Below, in pieces: positions 3,653 to 11,557 of a stretch of DNA of 37,921 bases; the first letter of the stretch is position 1; each line of letters starts with the position of its first letter. The DNA lies in IMG/VR virus record IMGVR_UViG_2713896908_000005. One strand, 5' to 3'. Both the position numbers and the translations under genes were made by a program. The DNA is from a virus. Its lineage: Duplodnaviria > Heunggongvirae > Uroviricota > Caudoviricetes. The notes below the pieces were generated by a model that saw nothing but the letters and a program-made list of their open reading frames with translations, had not been told where the DNA came from and did no database searches.

Positions 3653-4350
3653 AAAACATCGCCGCACAGATGGTTAACTTTGACTGTGAGCAGATGCGCC
3701 GGATCGCCAACAACATGCCGGAACAGTACGACGAAAAGCCACAGGTACAGCAGGTAGCGCAGATCATCAACGGTGTGTTCAGCCAGTTACTGGCAACTTT
3801 CCCGGCGAGCCTGGCTAACCGTGACCAGAATGAACTGAACGAAATCCGCCGCCAGTGGGTTCTGGCTTTCCGGGAAAACGGGATCACCACAATGGAACAG
3901 GTTAACGCTGGAATGCGCGTAGCCCGTCGGCAGAATCGACCATTCCTGCCATCACCCGGGCAGTTTGTCGCCTGGTGCCGGGAAGAAGCATCTGTTAACG
4001 CCGGGCTGCCAAACGTCAGCGAGCTGGTTGATATGGTTTACGAGTATTGCCGGAAGCGTGGACTGTATCCGGATGCAGAGTCTTATCCGTGGAAATCGAA
4101 CGCGCATTACTGGTTGGTTACCAACTTGTACCAGAACATGCGGGCCAATGCGCTGACTGACGCGGAATTACGGCGCAAGGCTGCCGATGAACTGACCTGT
4201 ATGACAGCGCGAATTAACCGTGGTGAGACGATACCTGAACCAGTAAAACAACTTCCTGTTATGGGCGGTAGACCTCTAAATCGTGCACAGGCTCTGGCGA
4301 AGATCGCAGAAATTAAAGCTAAGTTCGGACTGAAAGGAGCAAGTGTATGA
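3649..4350 (+). CDS. P: replication protein P-like (DnaB helicase loader)
   Basis: 233-aa product (MKNIAAQMVNFD...KAKFGLKGASV) closely matches lambda P as I recall it, including length; start overlaps the O stop. Confidence 0.9.
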   Translation: MKNIAAQMVNFDCEQMRRIANNMPEQYDEKPQVQQVAQIINGVFSQLLATFPASLANRDQNELNEIRRQWVLAFRENGITTMEQVNAGMRVARRQNRPFLPSPGQFVAWCREEASVNAGLPNVSELVDMVYEYCRKRGLYPDAESYPWKSNAHYWLVTNLYQNMRANALTDAELRRKAADELTCMTARINRGETIPEPVKQLPVMGGRPLNRAQALAKIAEIKAKFGLKGASV

Positions 4351-4649
4351 CGGGCAAAGAGGCAATTATTCATTACCTGGGGACGCATAAGAGCTTCTGT
4401 GCACAGGACGTTGCCGCGGTAACAGGCGCAACCGTAACCAGCATAAATCAGGCTGCGGCTAAAATGGCGCGGGCAGGAATCCTGGTCGTTGATGGTAAGG
4501 TCTGGCGAACGGTGTATTACCGGTTCGCTACCAGAGAAGAACGGGAAGGAAAGGTGAGCACGAATCTGATTTTTAAGGAGTGTCGCCAGAGTGCCGCGAT
4601 GAAACGGGTATTGAGGGTATATAAAAGAACATCAATGGGTACACAATGA
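4347..4649 (+). CDS. ren: Ren-like protein
   Basis: MTGKEAIIHYLGTH...VWRTVYYRFATREEREGK matches my recollection of lambda Ren; ATGA overlap with the P stop. Confidence 0.8.
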   Translation: MTGKEAIIHYLGTHKSFCAQDVAAVTGATVTSINQAAAKMARAGILVVDGKVWRTVYYRFATREEREGKVSTNLIFKECRQSAAMKRVLRVYKRTSMGTQ

Positions 4650-4716
4650 TGAAACAGGTGAGTTGAGTTCAAACTGTAGTACAATTCTCTCCAGTTTGAA
4701 CAGGAAAGAATATGTT

Positions 4717-5049
4717 ATGAACCCTTATATTTATCTTGGTGGTGCAATACTTGCAGAGGTCATTGGTACAACCTTAATGAAGTTTTCAGAAGGTTTTACA
4801 CGGTTATGGCCATCTGTTGGTACAATTATTTGTTATTGTGCATCATTCTGGTTATTAGCTCAGACGCTGGCTTATATTCCTACAGGGATTGCTTATGCTA
4901 TCTGGTCAGGAGTCGGTATTGTCCTGATTAGCTTACTGTCATGGGGATTTTTCGGCCAACGGCTGGACCTGCCAGCCATTATAGGCATGATGTTGATTTG
5001 TGCCGGTGTGTTGGTTATTAATTTATTGTCACGAAGCACACCACATTAA
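4717..5049 (+). CDS. emrE: small multidrug resistance (SMR) efflux transporter EmrE
   Basis: Start at internal ATG 4717; 110-aa product MNPYIYLGGAILAEVIGTTLMKFSEGFTRLWPS... with four hydrophobic helices and the conserved membrane-embedded Glu (AEVIGT); matches E. coli EmrE as recalled. Confidence 0.9.
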   Translation: MNPYIYLGGAILAEVIGTTLMKFSEGFTRLWPSVGTIICYCASFWLLAQTLAYIPTGIAYAIWSGVGIVLISLLSWGFFGQRLDLPAIIGMMLICAGVLVINLLSRSTPH

Positions 5050-5080
5050 AAATAATTTGTTTCTAAACGACTAAAATATG

Positions 5081-5114
5081 GAGGCTCTTATATTTATATG
5101 AGCCTCGTTTTATG
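5081..5114 (+). terminator. intrinsic terminator after emrE
   Basis: Perfect 7-bp stem GAGGCTC (5081-5087) / GAGCCTC (5100-5106), 12-nt AT loop, then T-rich run gttttatgcttttt. Confidence 0.6.
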
Positions 5115-5304
5115 CTTTTTGTTAATGTCTTTATTTTTTATGTATTCTTTTGTGCTTTCAAGATTATGGCGTAAGAAAATTGCAATACGATTATTGTTGT
5201 ATATTCAAGATAATGTGACCTTAATTGTCTTTTTAAATAAAAATTAAACAAAAATTATATCCCACCACTAAGGTTTATAAAAGCATACGTTAGCAGGTGT
5301 CACC

Positions 5305-6831
5305 ATGAAAAAAGCCATAGCATATATGCGATTTTCATCACCAGGTCAGATGTCTGGCGACTCATTAAACCGACAGAGAAGACTTATTGCTGAATGGTTA
5401 AAGGTAAATGGTGATTATTATCTTGATACCATAACATATGAAGATTTAGGATTAAGTGCATTCAAAGGAAAGCATGCACAATCAGGAGCTTTTTCGGAAT
5501 TTTTAGATGCTATAGAGCATGGTTATATATTGCCAGGAACTACATTGTTAGTTGAAAGTCTGGACAGACTTTCAAGAGAAAAAGTCGGTGAAGCGATTGA
5601 ACGTCTGAAATTGATTTTGAATCACGGTATTGATGTTATAACTCTTTGCGACAATACAGTCTATAATATTGACTCTTTGAATGAGCCATATTCATTAATA
5701 AAAGCCATACTTATAGCACAAAGGGCAAATGAAGAAAGCGAGATAAAGTCAAGTCGGGTTAAATTATCATGGAAGAAAAAACGGCAGGATGCACTGGAAT
5801 CAGGTACGATTATGACGGCGTCTTGTCCGAGATGGCTCTCCTTAGATGACAAAAGAACGGCTTTTGTTCCAGACCCCGACAGGGTGAAAACTATTGAGCT
5901 AATTTTTAAACTCAGGATGGAAAGGCGCTCATTGAATGCAATAGCCAAGTATTTAAATGATCATGCTGTAAAGAATTTCTCAGGAAAAGAAAGTGCATGG
6001 GGACCTTCTGTAATTGAAAAATTATTAGCGAATAAAGCTCTGATAGGTATATGCGTACCTTCATATCGTGCAAGAGGGAAAGGGATAAGTGAAATCGCTG
6101 GCTATTATCCCAGAGTCATATCAGATGATTTGTTTTACGCTGTACAGGAAATTCGGTTGGCACCTTTTGGTATTAGCAATAGTAGCAAGAATCCTATGCT
6201 AATAAATCTACTTCGAACAGTTATGAAGTGTGAGGCTTGTGGTAATACCATGATTGTTCATGCGGTATCTGGAAGTTTGCATGGCTATTATGTTTGTCCG
6301 ATGAGAAGATTACATCGATGTGACAGGCCATCAATAAAAAGAGATTTGGTTGATTATAATATCATTAATGAATTGCTTTTTAATTGTAGCAAAATTCAAC
6401 CAGTTGAAAACAAGAAAGATGCTAATGAAACTTTAGAGTTAAAAATTATTGAGCTTCAGATGAAAATTAATAATTTAATCGTTGCATTGTCTGTCGCGCC
6501 TGAAGTTACCGCTATAGCAGAGAAAATAAGACTATTAGATAAGGAATTACGAAGGGCTTCGGTATCATTGAAAACTTTGAAGAGTAAAGGTGTAAATTCA
6601 TTCAGTGATTTTTATGCTATTGACTTAACCAGTAAAAATGGACGAGAGTTATGCCGTACACTTGCCTATAAAACATTCGAAAAAATCATAATTAATACGG
6701 ATAATAAAACCTGTGATATCTATTTTATGAATGGCATTGTTTTTAAACACTATCCTTTAATGAAAGTAATATCCGCCCAGCAGGCGATAAGTGCTCTCAA
6801 ATATATGGTTGATGGTGAGGTTTATTTTTGA
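5305..6831 (+). CDS. ybcK: large serine recombinase (YbcK-like)
   Basis: 508 aa; N-terminal resolvase-type catalytic domain (AIAYMRFSSPGQ with candidate nucleophile Ser, later LDRLSR), long C-terminal extension with Cys cluster (CEACGNT...YYVCPMRRLHRC) and coiled coil; AT-rich, follows emrE as in DLP12. Confidence 0.8.
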   Translation: MKKAIAYMRFSSPGQMSGDSLNRQRRLIAEWLKVNGDYYLDTITYEDLGLSAFKGKHAQSGAFSEFLDAIEHGYILPGTTLLVESLDRLSREKVGEAIERLKLILNHGIDVITLCDNTVYNIDSLNEPYSLIKAILIAQRANEESEIKSSRVKLSWKKKRQDALESGTIMTASCPRWLSLDDKRTAFVPDPDRVKTIELIFKLRMERRSLNAIAKYLNDHAVKNFSGKESAWGPSVIEKLLANKALIGICVPSYRARGKGISEIAGYYPRVISDDLFYAVQEIRLAPFGISNSSKNPMLINLLRTVMKCEACGNTMIVHAVSGSLHGYYVCPMRRLHRCDRPSIKRDLVDYNIINELLFNCSKIQPVENKKDANETLELKIIELQMKINNLIVALSVAPEVTAIAEKIRLLDKELRRASVSLKTLKSKGVNSFSDFYAIDLTSKNGRELCRTLAYKTFEKIIINTDNKTCDIYFMNGIVFKHYPLMKVISAQQAISALKYMVDGEVYF

Positions 6832-7352
6832 GTAATAATCACTTTTTCAACCGTGCTATGGTATGAAAGTAAAGTAACTACTATGATATTAACTATCTTG
6901 AACGAAGCGCCCTGAGCTATGGTTTTGCTATAGGGACTGCCAATGGGGGCTGGCATTCTCGCTCCAGTAGTTCAATAATACTCAATCACAAAACAATTCA
7001 CTGATAACAAACTTTGCACACTTGCTTGGTTATGGCGAGCAAGTGATGTGATGTTAACCGTCTGCCAGAACATTACTTCACTTCTTCAAGTGGCGGAACA
7101 TTGCGAATCCGGTAACTTTGCTTCCATCGAGCAAGAATATCCCCAGGTACTCAACAGGGCGCAGGTCAACGTGAATCGGTCATGACACGACACCGATTTT
7201 GCGGAATGTTTCGAAGGTAAACTATTGGATGCCTCTATCAGCAACAACACAGCAAGAGCAGAAGTGATGGACGACACGTTCAGAGCAATGATTCAGCGCG
7301 TCGAGGATGCGAAAGGAAAACTGTAACCACAGAGAAAGAGCTTGTTTCATGT

Positions 7353-7625
7353 GTGAAGGAGCGCAGTAACAGGACATTTGAAGCCCGTTACTACCTTCAA
7401 AACAGCAATCTACAAACTGTGCTCGAACAGGGAATGGTGATAAGCAGAGACGCGTTAGAAAACTATGAAGCTGGAAATCTGATATCCGACATCCTGCCAC
7501 AGCAATCACCTGAAGATGCGGTACTAAAAATGGTTGACTGTCTCAAGCGCCTTGGAGCTGCTACCGAAGCTAATTTTAAAAACAATAAGGATGAAAATGT
7601 GGATCCCGAAAACTACGTTGTGTAA
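7353..7625 (+). CDS. hypothetical ORF, possibly the 3-prime piece of a frameshifted gene
   Basis: 90-codon ORF with GTG start and no clear SD; the reading frame continues upstream and two other frames carry adjacent open stretches (see finding). Confidence 0.2.
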   Translation: MKERSNRTFEARYYLQNSNLQTVLEQGMVISRDALENYEAGNLISDILPQQSPEDAVLKMVDCLKRLGAATEANFKNNKDENVDPENYVV

Positions 7626-7769
7626 CGTAAGGTTAAATGAGGCTATTAAATGTTGTGATATCAATAGATATATATAGAGTAATTTTCGTTATAATTAACT
7701 GTTCTGGGATATCGGACTATGATGGTCTCCAGAATTGAGAATATTTATCAACTTAATGATAGAGGGACT

Positions 7770-8036
7770 ATGAAAATTTACAGCCTTGGTGAAGAGACAA
7801 TCAATAGCATTGTTGAAGAAGATAAAAAATTGTCTGAGCAGGTGCAGATTATTGACGATTATATCGTTATCAATGTTGCTTATGAATACAACATCCCGCT
7901 TAGTACATGTTCAACACATCAGCAAATTTTGAACTGGGTGTGGCACTTAACTGAAAAAACATGGATGACACAAAATGTTACTCGTCGCTTCATTGAAGTA
8001 GCTTGTGGATATCACAAGCTAGACTATCGCCAATGA
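7770..8036 (+). CDS. hypothetical small protein (88 aa), AT-rich cargo gene
   Basis: Start at internal ATG 7770 with AGAGGGA SD; AT-rich unlike neighbouring nin genes; followed by a 10-bp perfect hairpin. Confidence 0.4.
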   Translation: MKIYSLGEETINSIVEEDKKLSEQVQIIDDYIVINVAYEYNIPLSTCSTHQQILNWVWHLTEKTWMTQNVTRRFIEVACGYHKLDYRQ

Positions 8037-8078
8037 TATTCAATTTTTGATTTTTTAGTATCAACCTTCCATAATAAT

Positions 8079-8107
8079 GTCACCGGAGCTTGAACAACTC
8101 CGGTGAC
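8079..8107 (+). terminator. stem-loop downstream of the small AT-rich gene (possible terminator)
   Basis: GTCACCGGAG (8079-8088) / CTCCGGTGAC (8098-8107) perfect 10-bp stem, 9-nt loop; only a weak T-tract follows (ttctgcgcattt). Confidence 0.3.
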
Positions 8108-8226
8108 TTCTGCGCATTTAAGGGGACTTAAATGCGACCACAATCTGAACTCCTTACCTTGTCACAGATGCAGAAATGCACCTGCGATGTCTTGCATCCA
8201 GCGTTTGATCTCTGCGGAGGTGAAGC

Positions 8227-8682
8227 GTGAACCTCCCACAAGATGGTATCAAATTGCATCGCGGTAACTTCACCGCTATCGGTCGGCAGATCCAGCCTTA
8301 TCTGGAGGACGGCAAATGCTTTCGCATGGTGCTTAAACCGTGGCGCGAGAGACGCAGTCTTTCCCAGAATGCACTCAGCCACATGTGGTACAGCGAAATC
8401 AGTGAATACCTCATCAGCAGGGGTAAAACGTTCGCCACTCCAGCTTGGGTAAAAGATGCTCTCAAACACACATATCTCGGTTATGAAACCAAAGACCTGG
8501 TTGATGTCGTAACCGGTGATATCACCACTATCCAGTCGTTACGCCATACCTCCGATCTTGATACCGGAGAGATGTATGTCTTCCTGTGTAAGGTTGAAGC
8601 CTGGGCGGTGAATATTGGCTGCCACCTGACTATTCCGCAGAGCTGCGAGTTCCAGCTGCTCCGCGACAAGCAGGAGGCGTAA
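8227..8682 (+). CDS. ninB: NinB-like recombination protein (lambda Orf family)
   Basis: GTG start at 8227 with GGAGG SD 6 nt upstream; [20 protein letters not shown] parallels the conserved RSLDQN region of lambda NinB as I recall it; size about 150 aa. Confidence 0.7.
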
Positions 8683-10273: not shown

Positions 10274-11557
10274 CTATGACCGCGAAAAGTAGTGATGGTT
10301 CAGTTCTTTTGCAAAATAGTGCTTACGTTTAACCCAGATAAAACCATCAGCTTTAGAAATGATTGCAACATCTATGGGGCCTCCCACTGTTTCAGTATCA
10401 TCGGAGACCTTGCGCTTGAAAGCGGTTAAATTTACTAATGATTCAGCCATATAAGCTAAATCTTGCTTGGGTAAAAACTCGATCATATTTACGACTTTGT
10501 CAACATAGTTTTCTCGGACAAAGCTATCAATACGCCCCTTGCAATCGGAAACAGTTCTGCGCACTACATCAACTATAGCATCCTTAGCTCCTTCGATATC
10601 TGAAGTAGGCACCAAATCTGTGATTACTGAATCAATACCGTCAAGTAAATCGACGATAGAACGTTGATACTCAGCATGAAGATTTTGGATAAGATGTGAA
10701 CTAGCTCCTTGCATGAAAGCAGAAACTTCATCCTCTTGCGCAAAAGGAGTCACGCCGCAATTAGGAGTGATGCAGCACTTGTCAGCATCTGTAGTTTTCC
10801 TGATTTTATCATTAAAGAAGCCACAAACTTCATATGATAATACTTTAGGGTAATAGTCTTTATCGCCATAACCTGCAATCACAATCCCAGAGACGGAACC
10901 GATATCACTTTGCTTGCATATCATAGCTGCCAAAACATCACTAACTACTTTTGTCAACTGTGGAGTTATGGATATTGGATCAAAGTCACTAAACTTTTGA
11001 GCAATGATGCGTTGGGCAACTGATGAAGCATAGGTTTGGGCTGCTTGTTCATCATCCGGAGTAAAACCATCAAAGTAATTAATATCAGATAATTTTGTAA
11101 GGAGATCGTTGCAATAATTTGTAAGGTCTGTAACAAATTGATTCTTATTGAAGTTAACGAAATATGTTGGTTCGAGACCTTCAGAAAAAGCATCAACAAG
11201 CATGCTGAATACAATCTCGCTCAGGAAGTGATAAAGATGAGCCTCACGCATACCTGGTGTGATGATTGATTTAGCCGACTGTAGATAATTGAAGAAATCC
11301 TCAGCATATTCCTCCAAAGAGTCAAAACATTTAGAGCCTAAATCCTTTCTATAAGCCTTGATGATAAGCTCCCATGGAGCTGTGCAGAGATCACCAGTTC
11401 CATATACCATCAAACCTACAGGATGATGTTTAGTCAGAGCGAAAAGCTTTTCAGCGCCATTATAGATTTTATGTTTGCCGCCTCCAGAAATTGTTACAGC
11501 TGAATCTGCGGCTAAAGCTACTGCGGTCTTGTTAAATACGGCTATTTCTGCTGTCAT
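10274..11557 (-). CDS. uncharacterised 427-aa cargo protein on the opposite strand between Q and the lysis cassette
   Basis: Long minus-strand ORF, markedly AT-rich relative to flanking phage genes; own sigma70-like promoter and a terminator hairpin downstream; no signal peptide, no Walker A, no family recognised by eye. Confidence 0.8.
   Translation of the reverse strand: MTAEIAVFNKTAVALAADSAVTISGGGKHKIYNGAEKLFALTKHHPVGLMVYGTGDLCTAPWELIIKAYRKDLGSKCFDSLEEYAEDFFNYLQSAKSIITPGMREAHLYHFLSEIVFSMLVDAFSEGLEPTYFVNFNKNQFVTDLTNYCNDLLTKLSDINYFDGFTPDDEQAAQTYASSVAQRIIAQKFSDFDPISITPQLTKVVSDVLAAMICKQSDIGSVSGIVIAGYGDKDYYPKVLSYEVCGFFNDKIRKTTDADKCCITPNCGVTPFAQEDEVSAFMQGASSHLIQNLHAEYQRSIVDLLDGIDSVITDLVPTSDIEGAKDAIVDVVRRTVSDCKGRIDSFVRENYVDKVVNMIEFLPKQDLAYMAESLVNLTAFKRKVSDDTETVGGPIDVAIISKADGFIWVKRKHYFAKELNHHYFSRS

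Follow-up and report, generated by a model that had tools for sequence, protein, structure and literature searches.

The subject of this analysis is the emrE-ylcJ-ybcK block in a 37,921-nucleotide stretch of a tailed-phage genome, IMG/VR record IMGVR_UViG_2713896908_000005, the whole of which is called the window. The block is a composite of an emrE cassette, which is a lysogenic-conversion gene for a small multidrug resistance (SMR) efflux pump, and a separate ylcJ-ybcK unit. The best overall explanation, which we hold to be probable, is that the conversion cassette lies beside a silenced, moron-like unit encoding an intact recombinase, YbcK, which is not the integrase of the phage and would act in the induced phase. 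The window itself is of the SfV-like prophage type, in which a lambdoid early region is joined to a Mu-like tail, and its late half is 97-98% identical to SfV, SfII and SfI.

YbcK is a complete large serine recombinase held intact by purifying selection. Its gene (5305-6831, plus strand) encodes 508 amino acids, 506 of which are identical to those of K-12 YbcK (b0544). The protein consists of a catalytic domain (residues 1-160), a recombinase domain (about 190-285), a zinc ribbon with four cysteines (309-339), a coiled-coil (about 373-427) and a conserved C-terminal beta/alpha module (444-508). The Pfam matches are Resolvase (4e-19), Recombinase (PF07508; 2e-14, residues 191-284) and Zn_ribbon_recom (8e-8, residues 302-357). 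In an alignment of 18 family members with 40-61% identity, Y7, R9, S11, Q15, E84-E92 (ESLDRLSRE), C309, C312, C331 and C339 are invariant. S11 aligns with the nucleophilic serine of gamma-delta resolvase (Ser10) and with that of a Pin invertase encoded elsewhere in the window. Likewise, Y7, R9, S11, Q15, D87, R88 and R91 correspond to gamma-delta Y6, R8, S10, Q14, D67, R68 and R71 in the alignment.

A first-pass annotation of this DNA had described an AT-rich, ybcK-like large serine recombinase of 508 amino acids with an intact-looking catalytic N-domain and a Cys-rich C-terminal part, and this description holds in full. Ser11, Arg9, Asp87, Arg88, Arg91 and the four cysteines are intact, and the GC content over 4650-6900 is 0.31-0.41 compared with about 0.50 in the backbone on both sides. 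The annotation had named a change of the catalytic serine or a truncation as what would speak against an active enzyme; neither is seen, the homologues being 505-523 amino acids long. Residue 36 (5410-5412) is Gly in the window and Ser in K-12, and none of the 35 other distinct alleles has Gly at this place; S36G is thus a private substitution, and it lies outside the catalytic motifs.

The fold was examined with an AlphaFold model (mean predicted local distance difference test score, pLDDT, 83). In it, a long helix spans residues 128-166 and further helices are predicted at 373-397 and 402-427, so that both the coiled-coil and the overall fold of a large serine recombinase are present in the prediction. 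In Foldseek it matches the full-length integrases of SPbeta, Bxb1, PhiC31 and Listeria with E values from 4e-19 to 1e-9. A single-sequence search with YbcK against the PDB sequences gave no match, and a profile of the YbcK family reached SPbeta SprA weakly (E = 2e-5). YbcK is not a small serine invertase, as it has 508 amino acids, no HTH_7 domain and no bounding inverted repeats.

The gene is widespread and well preserved. It was found in 1424 of the 5426 complete E. coli genomes, with at least 80% of the gene present in 1398 of these 1424. In viral contigs, 79 of 80 copies have an open 508-codon frame and one is truncated; the 35 distinct full-length alleles among the 79 copies all retain the catalytic and zinc-binding residues. 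Between the two allele lineages of E. coli, dS is 0.13 and dN/dS is 0.07-0.08. The gene also occurs in 12 isolated phage records, and the isolated plaque-forming lambdoid carriers include Perceval, 4A7, Lambda_4C10, 1W/3W/D2, Turner and PhiR34_1. The order ren-emrE-ylcJ-ybcK is annotated in DLP12 of MG1655, in PapRG-06-3 (region 99.4% identical), in phage Perceval and in NZ_CP172337. The last is circular, 44.8 kb long and of the same phage type as the window, with emrE-ylcJ-ybcK in the same slot; it also encodes a tyrosine integrase together with an excisionase-like gene, the pinE invertase and Avs2. Judged from its sequence, YbcK could still catalyse recombination.

YbcK is not the prophage integrase but an additional recombinase, because related complete phages carry a tyrosine integrase and no homologue of a tyrosine integrase is encoded in the window. 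Perceval, for example, is a complete phage with the same block and encodes a tyrosine Int and Xis. Moreover, ybcK lies in the middle of the genome between ren and ybcN, which is not the place of a resident integrase. The prophage's own integrase is of the tyrosine type and its gene lies outside the window, in line with the first-pass annotation, which had set the recombinase apart from the prophage integrase.

We consider the block a composite because emrE is found without the unit in about 2,280 E. coli genomes, because a clean indel separates the two parts, and because orthologues in other genera have neither EmrE nor YlcJ beside them. The emrE cassette (4640-5057, plus strand) consists of a 77-bp leader, the coding sequence and 8 bp downstream, and the copies without ylcJ-ybcK are about 92% identical to it. 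In ATCC 25922 (NZ_CP009072, 3128000-3131500), emrE adjoins fliE, with ybcL-ybcM and a porin gene immediately behind it. An alignment of K-12 with ATCC 25922 gives a clean 2,083-bp indel whose left edge is at 5057/5058 and which holds a hairpin, ylcJ, ybcK and 309 bp of 3' flank. The ylcJ-ybcK unit in the window (5058-6907, plus strand) is AT-rich and about 1.85 kb long. It comprises a 247-bp 5' flank, the ybcK open reading frame (ORF) and the ~76 bp past the ybcK stop that are common to all E. coli arrangements.

The first element of the unit is an intrinsic-terminator-like hairpin with a T-run (5081-5121, plus strand; GAGGCTC / GAGCCTC with a 12-nt loop). The hairpin itself spans 5081-5106 and folds with z = -2.8, and the start codon of ylcJ (5098) lies inside the element. 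The first-pass annotation had given this terminator to emrE. The structure exists, but it belongs to the ylcJ-ybcK unit, because it lies inside the 2,083-bp indel and is absent from the emrE loci that lack ybcK. Behind it, ylcJ (5098-5247, plus strand) encodes a hydrophobic small protein of 49 amino acids (Pfam YlcJ, 2e-35; PMC6001520); this gene had been overlooked in the earlier gene list, in which emrE and ybcK had been recognised. The unit has the features of a moron: a GC content of 0.36 against 0.50, terminator hairpins, a promoter identified by systematic evolution of ligands by exponential enrichment (SELEX), and a slot whose occupancy varies among phages.

Published work on K-12 bears on the control of the unit. 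A Rho/NusG-dependent terminator was found in the ybcK leader, overlapping the ylcJ region (PMC4150792). The motif GTGACC-17-TAAAAA (5215-5243, plus strand) matches the 'constitutive promoter' reported for ybcK from SELEX with RpoD holoenzyme, and the emrE-ybcK interval that holds this promoter is marked HNS in the same study (PMC3946193). Hfq binds ybcK DNA in a polyphosphate-dependent way (PMC10954037). From these three papers, ybcK is silenced in the K-12 lysogen. Besides, YbcK is counted among 16 site-specific recombinases of K-12 and is dispensable for excision of the H47 island (PMC5426353). In the literature searched, no paper assigning YbcK a substrate and no functional study of it were found.

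The following course of events may be proposed. In the lysogen, ybcK would be kept silent by the H-NS site, by Hfq with polyphosphate and by the Rho/NusG leader terminator, as the K-12 literature suggests. During induction or infection, it would be expressed mainly by N-antiterminated read-through of the early operon from pR; we infer this from the gene pointing the same way as that operon. YbcK would then act as other members of its family do, as a site-specific recombinase that attacks a pair of sites with Ser11, rotates subunits and religates. Several points weigh against this proposal. No recombination site, recombination directionality factor (RDF) or rearrangement product was found for YbcK, so its mechanism is taken from family membership, just as its lytic expression is inferred from orientation. 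Even in lytic growth, ybcK could be held off by two terminators, the hairpin at the 5' edge of the unit and the Rho-dependent one in the leader. In BL21, deletion or overexpression of ybcK alters sabinene tolerance (PMC7181518), which may point to some expression of the gene in the lysogen and to a role there.

Possible sites of action were sought around the block. Neither across 4300-8400 nor between the block ends do direct or inverted repeats exceed chance, and the best local alignment between the ends scores below that of shuffled controls. At the two junctions of the E. coli unit there is no shared dinucleotide, nor are there terminal inverted or direct repeats, and an Rfam scan of the region returned matches at chance level only. 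The att-like repeats that the first-pass annotation had proposed to look for in the flanking DNA are therefore not present at the block borders. Among the 5,426 genomes, no 'precise excision' junction of the K-12 allele was found, and only the diverged version of the fliE islet exists. Downstream of ybcK, 84 E. coli-type loci fall into two basic arrangements that share ~76 bp past the stop. The first continues into an antirepressor 3' remnant (6944-7169), as in the window, and the second has 233 more bases and then ybcL-ybcM, as in K-12. The remaining variation consists of deletions and insertion sequence (IS) insertions. An integron-like single capture site past ybcK was thus rejected, since its apparent breakpoints are these two arrangements together with the deletions and IS insertions. 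On the other side, the left neighbour of ybcK is always emrE/ren in 80 E. coli-type copies. The block borders are ordinary mosaic joints, and emrE and ybcK are linked through a historical accident in the E. coli lineage and do not form a functional pair.

The wider YbcK family (505-523 amino acids, 40-61% identity) is found in Atlantibacter, Yersinia, Erwinia, Pantoea, Kluyvera, Ewingella and Citrobacter, in several kinds of place. In Pantoea dispersa, Atlantibacter RC6 and Pantoea alvi it occupies a post-replication (nin-like) slot. In Atlantibacter (beside ssrA), Yersinia, Erwinia and Ewingella it is the last or nearly the last gene past the tail-fibre assembly gene, at the prophage end. It is also found at an element/host junction (Pantoea dispersa S68) and on plasmids. 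Neither EmrE nor YlcJ stands beside the orthologues in the other genera, and no conserved partner gene was found beside the family members. We compared five independent pairs of related family members in different contexts: beyond the gene itself, a pair has in common no more than 65-250 bp on the upstream side and 0-90 bp on the downstream side (+406 in one pair). As the related genes share only short flanks, and as the 3' flanks across the family have no common motif and are often plainly terminator-like, the family moves as a gene-sized, moron-like unit.

The same comparisons bear on a further idea, namely that ylcJ-ybcK and its relatives are minimal self-mobile elements, each consisting of a single recombinase gene flanked by about 150-250 bp on the 5' side and 60-90 bp on the 3' side. 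Excised by their own recombinase, such elements would insert at, or make mosaic joints in, the cargo hot-spots of temperate phages and of plasmids of Enterobacterales, in the manner of a minimal Tn4451/Tn5397-type or IS-like serine element. In E. coli, the unit (~1.8 kb) would have landed between emrE and its downstream neighbours. The idea draws on the five pairs, whose shared DNA ends near the ORF in each context, and on the extent of the units: in a 94%-identical Pantoea pair the common DNA is confined to -223 to +59/80, and the E. coli unit runs from -247 to +76. On a Duffyella plasmid the gene stands by itself, with an aldo/keto reductase gene on one side and an iron ABC transporter on the other, and the homology of the flanks to other plasmids stops at -151 and +79/92. 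K-12 and ATCC 25922 also resemble a filled and an empty site. However, the E. coli junctions lack both terminal repeats and a shared dinucleotide, and the 'empty' site may be a deletion, because it is off by 4 unmatched bases and its locus is 8-10% diverged. The two comparisons place the right border differently (+76 against +309), and the 3' flanks look like plain terminators with no conserved motif. Recent hopping was not seen, all 80 E. coli-type copies having the same left neighbour, emrE/ren. Ordinary shuffling of morons also gives sharp, gene-sized blocks of homology. We regard self-mobility as unlikely.

Another possibility is that YbcK is a second, alternative phage integrase with an attP beside its gene, which would allow lysogeny at a second site when the first is occupied. 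Members in Atlantibacter, Yersinia, Erwinia, Ewingella and Pantoea are indeed the last or nearly the last gene of a prophage or small element and lie beside host DNA; at the one end inspected in these prophages the distance is, for example, 540 bp to the ssrA 3' end, ~200 bp to a 3' fragment of a tRNA gene or ~130 bp to host genes. This position is, however, the usual cargo slot past the tail-fibre genes, which abuts a tRNA in SfV-type phages. In E. coli, ybcK is always inside the prophage in the ren/nin region, and no permuted prophage with ybcK at its end was seen. We give this possibility little weight, less than the preceding one.

It is still less probable that YbcK serves the lysogen as an inversion or deletion switch or in defence or stress, as PinQ and PinR may suggest; these small serine recombinases of cryptic prophages are reported to have a host-serving function (PMC12529663). 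Besides this precedent, the arguments for such a role are that equivalent slots usually hold defence or conversion genes (Avs2 is in the tail-end slot of NZ_CP172337), that on a Pantoea plasmid a family member has NACHT and RelA-SpoT genes as neighbours, that ybcK is intact in the defective DLP12, and that the sabinene-tolerance phenotype exists (PMC7181518). PADLOC gave no match, however, for YbcK, EmrE, YlcJ or the neighbouring ORFs, and no inverted repeats delimit a segment near ybcK. Neither of the two basic downstream arrangements is an inversion of the other. The fliE islet kept emrE, ybcL, ybcM and the porin but not ybcK, and the gene is silenced in K-12. Least probable of all is a decaying relic with no current function: ybcK does occur in defective prophages such as DLP12, is transcriptionally silenced, carries IS insertions in some O157 strains and is truncated in 1 of 80 copies, but a dN/dS of about 0.08, the 35 full-length alleles with every catalytic and zinc-binding residue kept, the presence in plaque-forming phages and the conservation of the family at 40-60% identity across Enterobacterales disfavour it. 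An intact, silenced recombinase with a probable role in the induced phase is therefore the reading that we retain.

Some single loci of the family deserve mention. In Atlantibacter DHIB01000016 (8001-10432), an SfV-like prophage ends with a 59%-identical orthologue, and 540 bp separate the 3' end of this gene from that of an intact transfer-messenger RNA (tmRNA) gene, the usual position of an integrase. In Citrobacter koseri CAYTAX010000009 (8145-11530), the recombinase gene is divergent to a gene for 555 amino acids with a faint match to Shufflon_N (PilV-like), in a region resembling a conjugative element, with TraD and MobA/MobL. Some members of the family might serve pilus-adhesin variation or the integration of elements. 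In Candidatus Pantoea alvi PQJV01000002 (9256-12860), an inverted recombinase unit lies between an intact repP and a second repP copy that consists of the 3' two-thirds and is riddled with stops, a recombination scar in the same post-replication slot as in E. coli. An insertion splitting repP was considered for this locus and rejected, as there is a full repP and a separate repP pseudogene. We also rejected the idea that the orthologues beside tail-fibre genes run an invertible tail-fibre segment, as oppositely oriented alternative fibre or assembly genes are not found there.

The other half of the block, emrE (4717-5049, plus strand), encodes a proton-coupled SMR efflux pump (Pfam PF00893 Multi_Drug_Res, 2e-35). 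The protein has 110 amino acids, of which 109 are identical in K-12 EmrE, and it shows what is expected of an SMR pump, namely a length of about 110 amino acids, the SMR Pfam domain and the essential Glu14, which is present in the translation. The gene starts at the ATG at 4717, behind a purine-rich ribosome-binding site; the start at 4663 given earlier is merely the first TTG of the open frame. Just upstream of the ribosome-binding site lies a 13-bp inverted repeat (GTTCAAACTGTAG / CTCCAGTTTGAAC, 9-nt spacer; 4667-4701) with TACAAT in its loop. Its fold (z = -1.3) is not significantly better than that of shuffled sequences, and the repeat is conserved in the chromosomal emrE islet as well. 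It may be an operator or a structure in the 5' untranslated region of emrE. As a site for the recombinase it was rejected, for it occurs in a single copy in the window and travels with emrE and not with ybcK. The chromosomal islet, emrE-ybcL-ybcM-porin, lies between fliE and yedK in ATCC 25922 and ~2,280 other genomes. Its genes are DLP12-like prophage cargo, and the recombinase unit and the whole nin-Q region are missing from it; it has the appearance of a prophage of which only the genes useful to the host remain.

The block occupies a variable slot of the phage backbone. Homology with cargo-free lambdoid phages stops at about 4613-4622, within the 3' end of ren (blastn and sequence print-out), and restarts at 8045/8046, before ybcN, in all the phages compared. 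Therefore 4614-8045 is a variable cargo slot, the ren/ybcN slot, filled here with the known DLP12-type block emrE-ylcJ-ybcK. In other phages, the slot holds an acyltransferase with a lipoprotein, Rha with small genes, or nearly nothing. The gene ren (4347-4649, plus strand; Ren-like exclusion protein, PHROG 142, 6e-42) is directly upstream of the block, as the first-pass annotation had stated when it placed the block between ren and ninB. The right-hand neighbour was not correct: ybcN (8227-8682; NinB-type) does not adjoin ybcK and lies 1.4 kb downstream, with an antirepressor remnant and two ORFs in between. The remnant (6944-7169, plus strand) is a 3' end with a P22AR C-terminal domain, Rha-type, and matches the Rha region of phage PhiR5_1. 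It is a scar of another slot occupant, whose 5' part gave way to the cargo. The two ORFs (7353-7625 and 7719-8036, plus strand) are AT-rich hypothetical cargo (PHROGs 1258, 2559 and 12459, function unknown) and are annotated in L001. At the right edge of the slot (8045-8107), a promoter-like TTGATT-17-CATAAT and a hairpin with a 12-bp stem (GTCACCGGAGC...GCTCCGGTGAC) are conserved; this may be a regulatory element resembling tR2 or a sequence that marks a module boundary. Past 8107, the backbone of ybcN, ninE, ybcO, rusA and Q is found in all the phages compared.

Other parts of the window were also inspected. A second serine recombinase, likewise overlooked in the earlier gene list, is encoded at 34482-35072: a Pin/Gin-type DNA invertase of 196 amino acids with the Resolvase and HTH_7 domains. 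It adjoins minus-strand genes for a tail-fibre C-terminus and tail-fibre assembly (33308-34491), and there are oppositely oriented fibre and assembly genes. The layout of 33308-35072 is that of a classic invertible host-range segment; inverted repeats bounding the segment were not convincingly found in it. On the minus strand at 10274-11557, between the Q antiterminator and the lysis genes, in the slot of the porin nmpC in DLP12, there is a gene for 427 amino acids (PHROG 5990, function unknown) with no Pfam, NCBIfam or PADLOC match. Past the invertase, 35426-37381 contains a minus-strand ORF of 262 amino acids with a weak HNH_5 match and an ORF of 138 amino acids with no match; this is a tail-end cargo slot, in which the related circular phage record has the defence gene Avs2.

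The recognition of emrE-ylcJ-ybcK as a module is already known and leaves the understanding of the locus unchanged. Likewise, the prophage origin of emrE is textbook knowledge, and EmrE is among the best-studied model transporters. What the present analysis adds concerns ybcK as a K-12 site-specific recombinase: its intactness, selection, prevalence and travel as a single gene. Because it is intact and selected, is present in one quarter of the complete E. coli genomes and in viable phages, and travels as a single-gene unit, ybcK is a reasonable candidate for the discovery of att sites. Such a discovery would serve biology and possibly provide an integrase for genome engineering.

Finally, the locus can be compared with known systems. 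The Gin, Cin and Pin invertases share with YbcK the catalytic domain family (Pfam Resolvase), but in place of their C-terminal HTH_7 YbcK has the recombinase, zinc-ribbon and coiled-coil domains, and it adjoins no invertible segment. TnpX and TndX are the large serine recombinases that move their own elements, Tn4451 and Tn5397, which carry cargo, have defined ends and a GA crossover dinucleotide, and pass through a circular intermediate. Like them, the YbcK family forms discrete units in many contexts; at the borders of the E. coli unit, however, neither terminal repeats nor a shared dinucleotide were found. The large serine integrases of phages (SPbeta SprA, Bxb1, PhiC31 and Listeria A118/LI) have the same four-part architecture and catalytic residues and match in fold. 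YbcK differs from them in that the identity is 15-19%, it is neither beside a phage attachment site nor a phage integrase, and no attP/attB or RDF is identified for it. The closest counterpart is DLP12 itself, with emrE (b0543), ylcJ (b4733) and ybcK (b0544): EmrE and YbcK are near-identical, and the order and the left junction are the same. The window at 4436-6870 is 98.97% identical to MG1655, so the DLP12-type cargo of the first-pass annotation and the comparison that it proposed are both borne out. The differences are that ren is intact here and split by IS3 in K-12, that the host phage is an SfV-like, myovirus-tailed lambdoid, that ybcK is followed by the antirepressor remnant and two hypothetical ORFs where DLP12 has ybcL-ybcM, and that S36G distinguishes this YbcK. 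Lastly, the lambdoid morons (lom, bor and the nmpC slot) are, like the ybcK unit, AT-rich, independently transcribed, provided with a promoter-like site and terminators, placed between backbone genes and variable. Morons normally encode proteins of benefit to the lysogen, whereas the ybcK unit encodes a complete site-specific recombinase, which is unusual for a moron.

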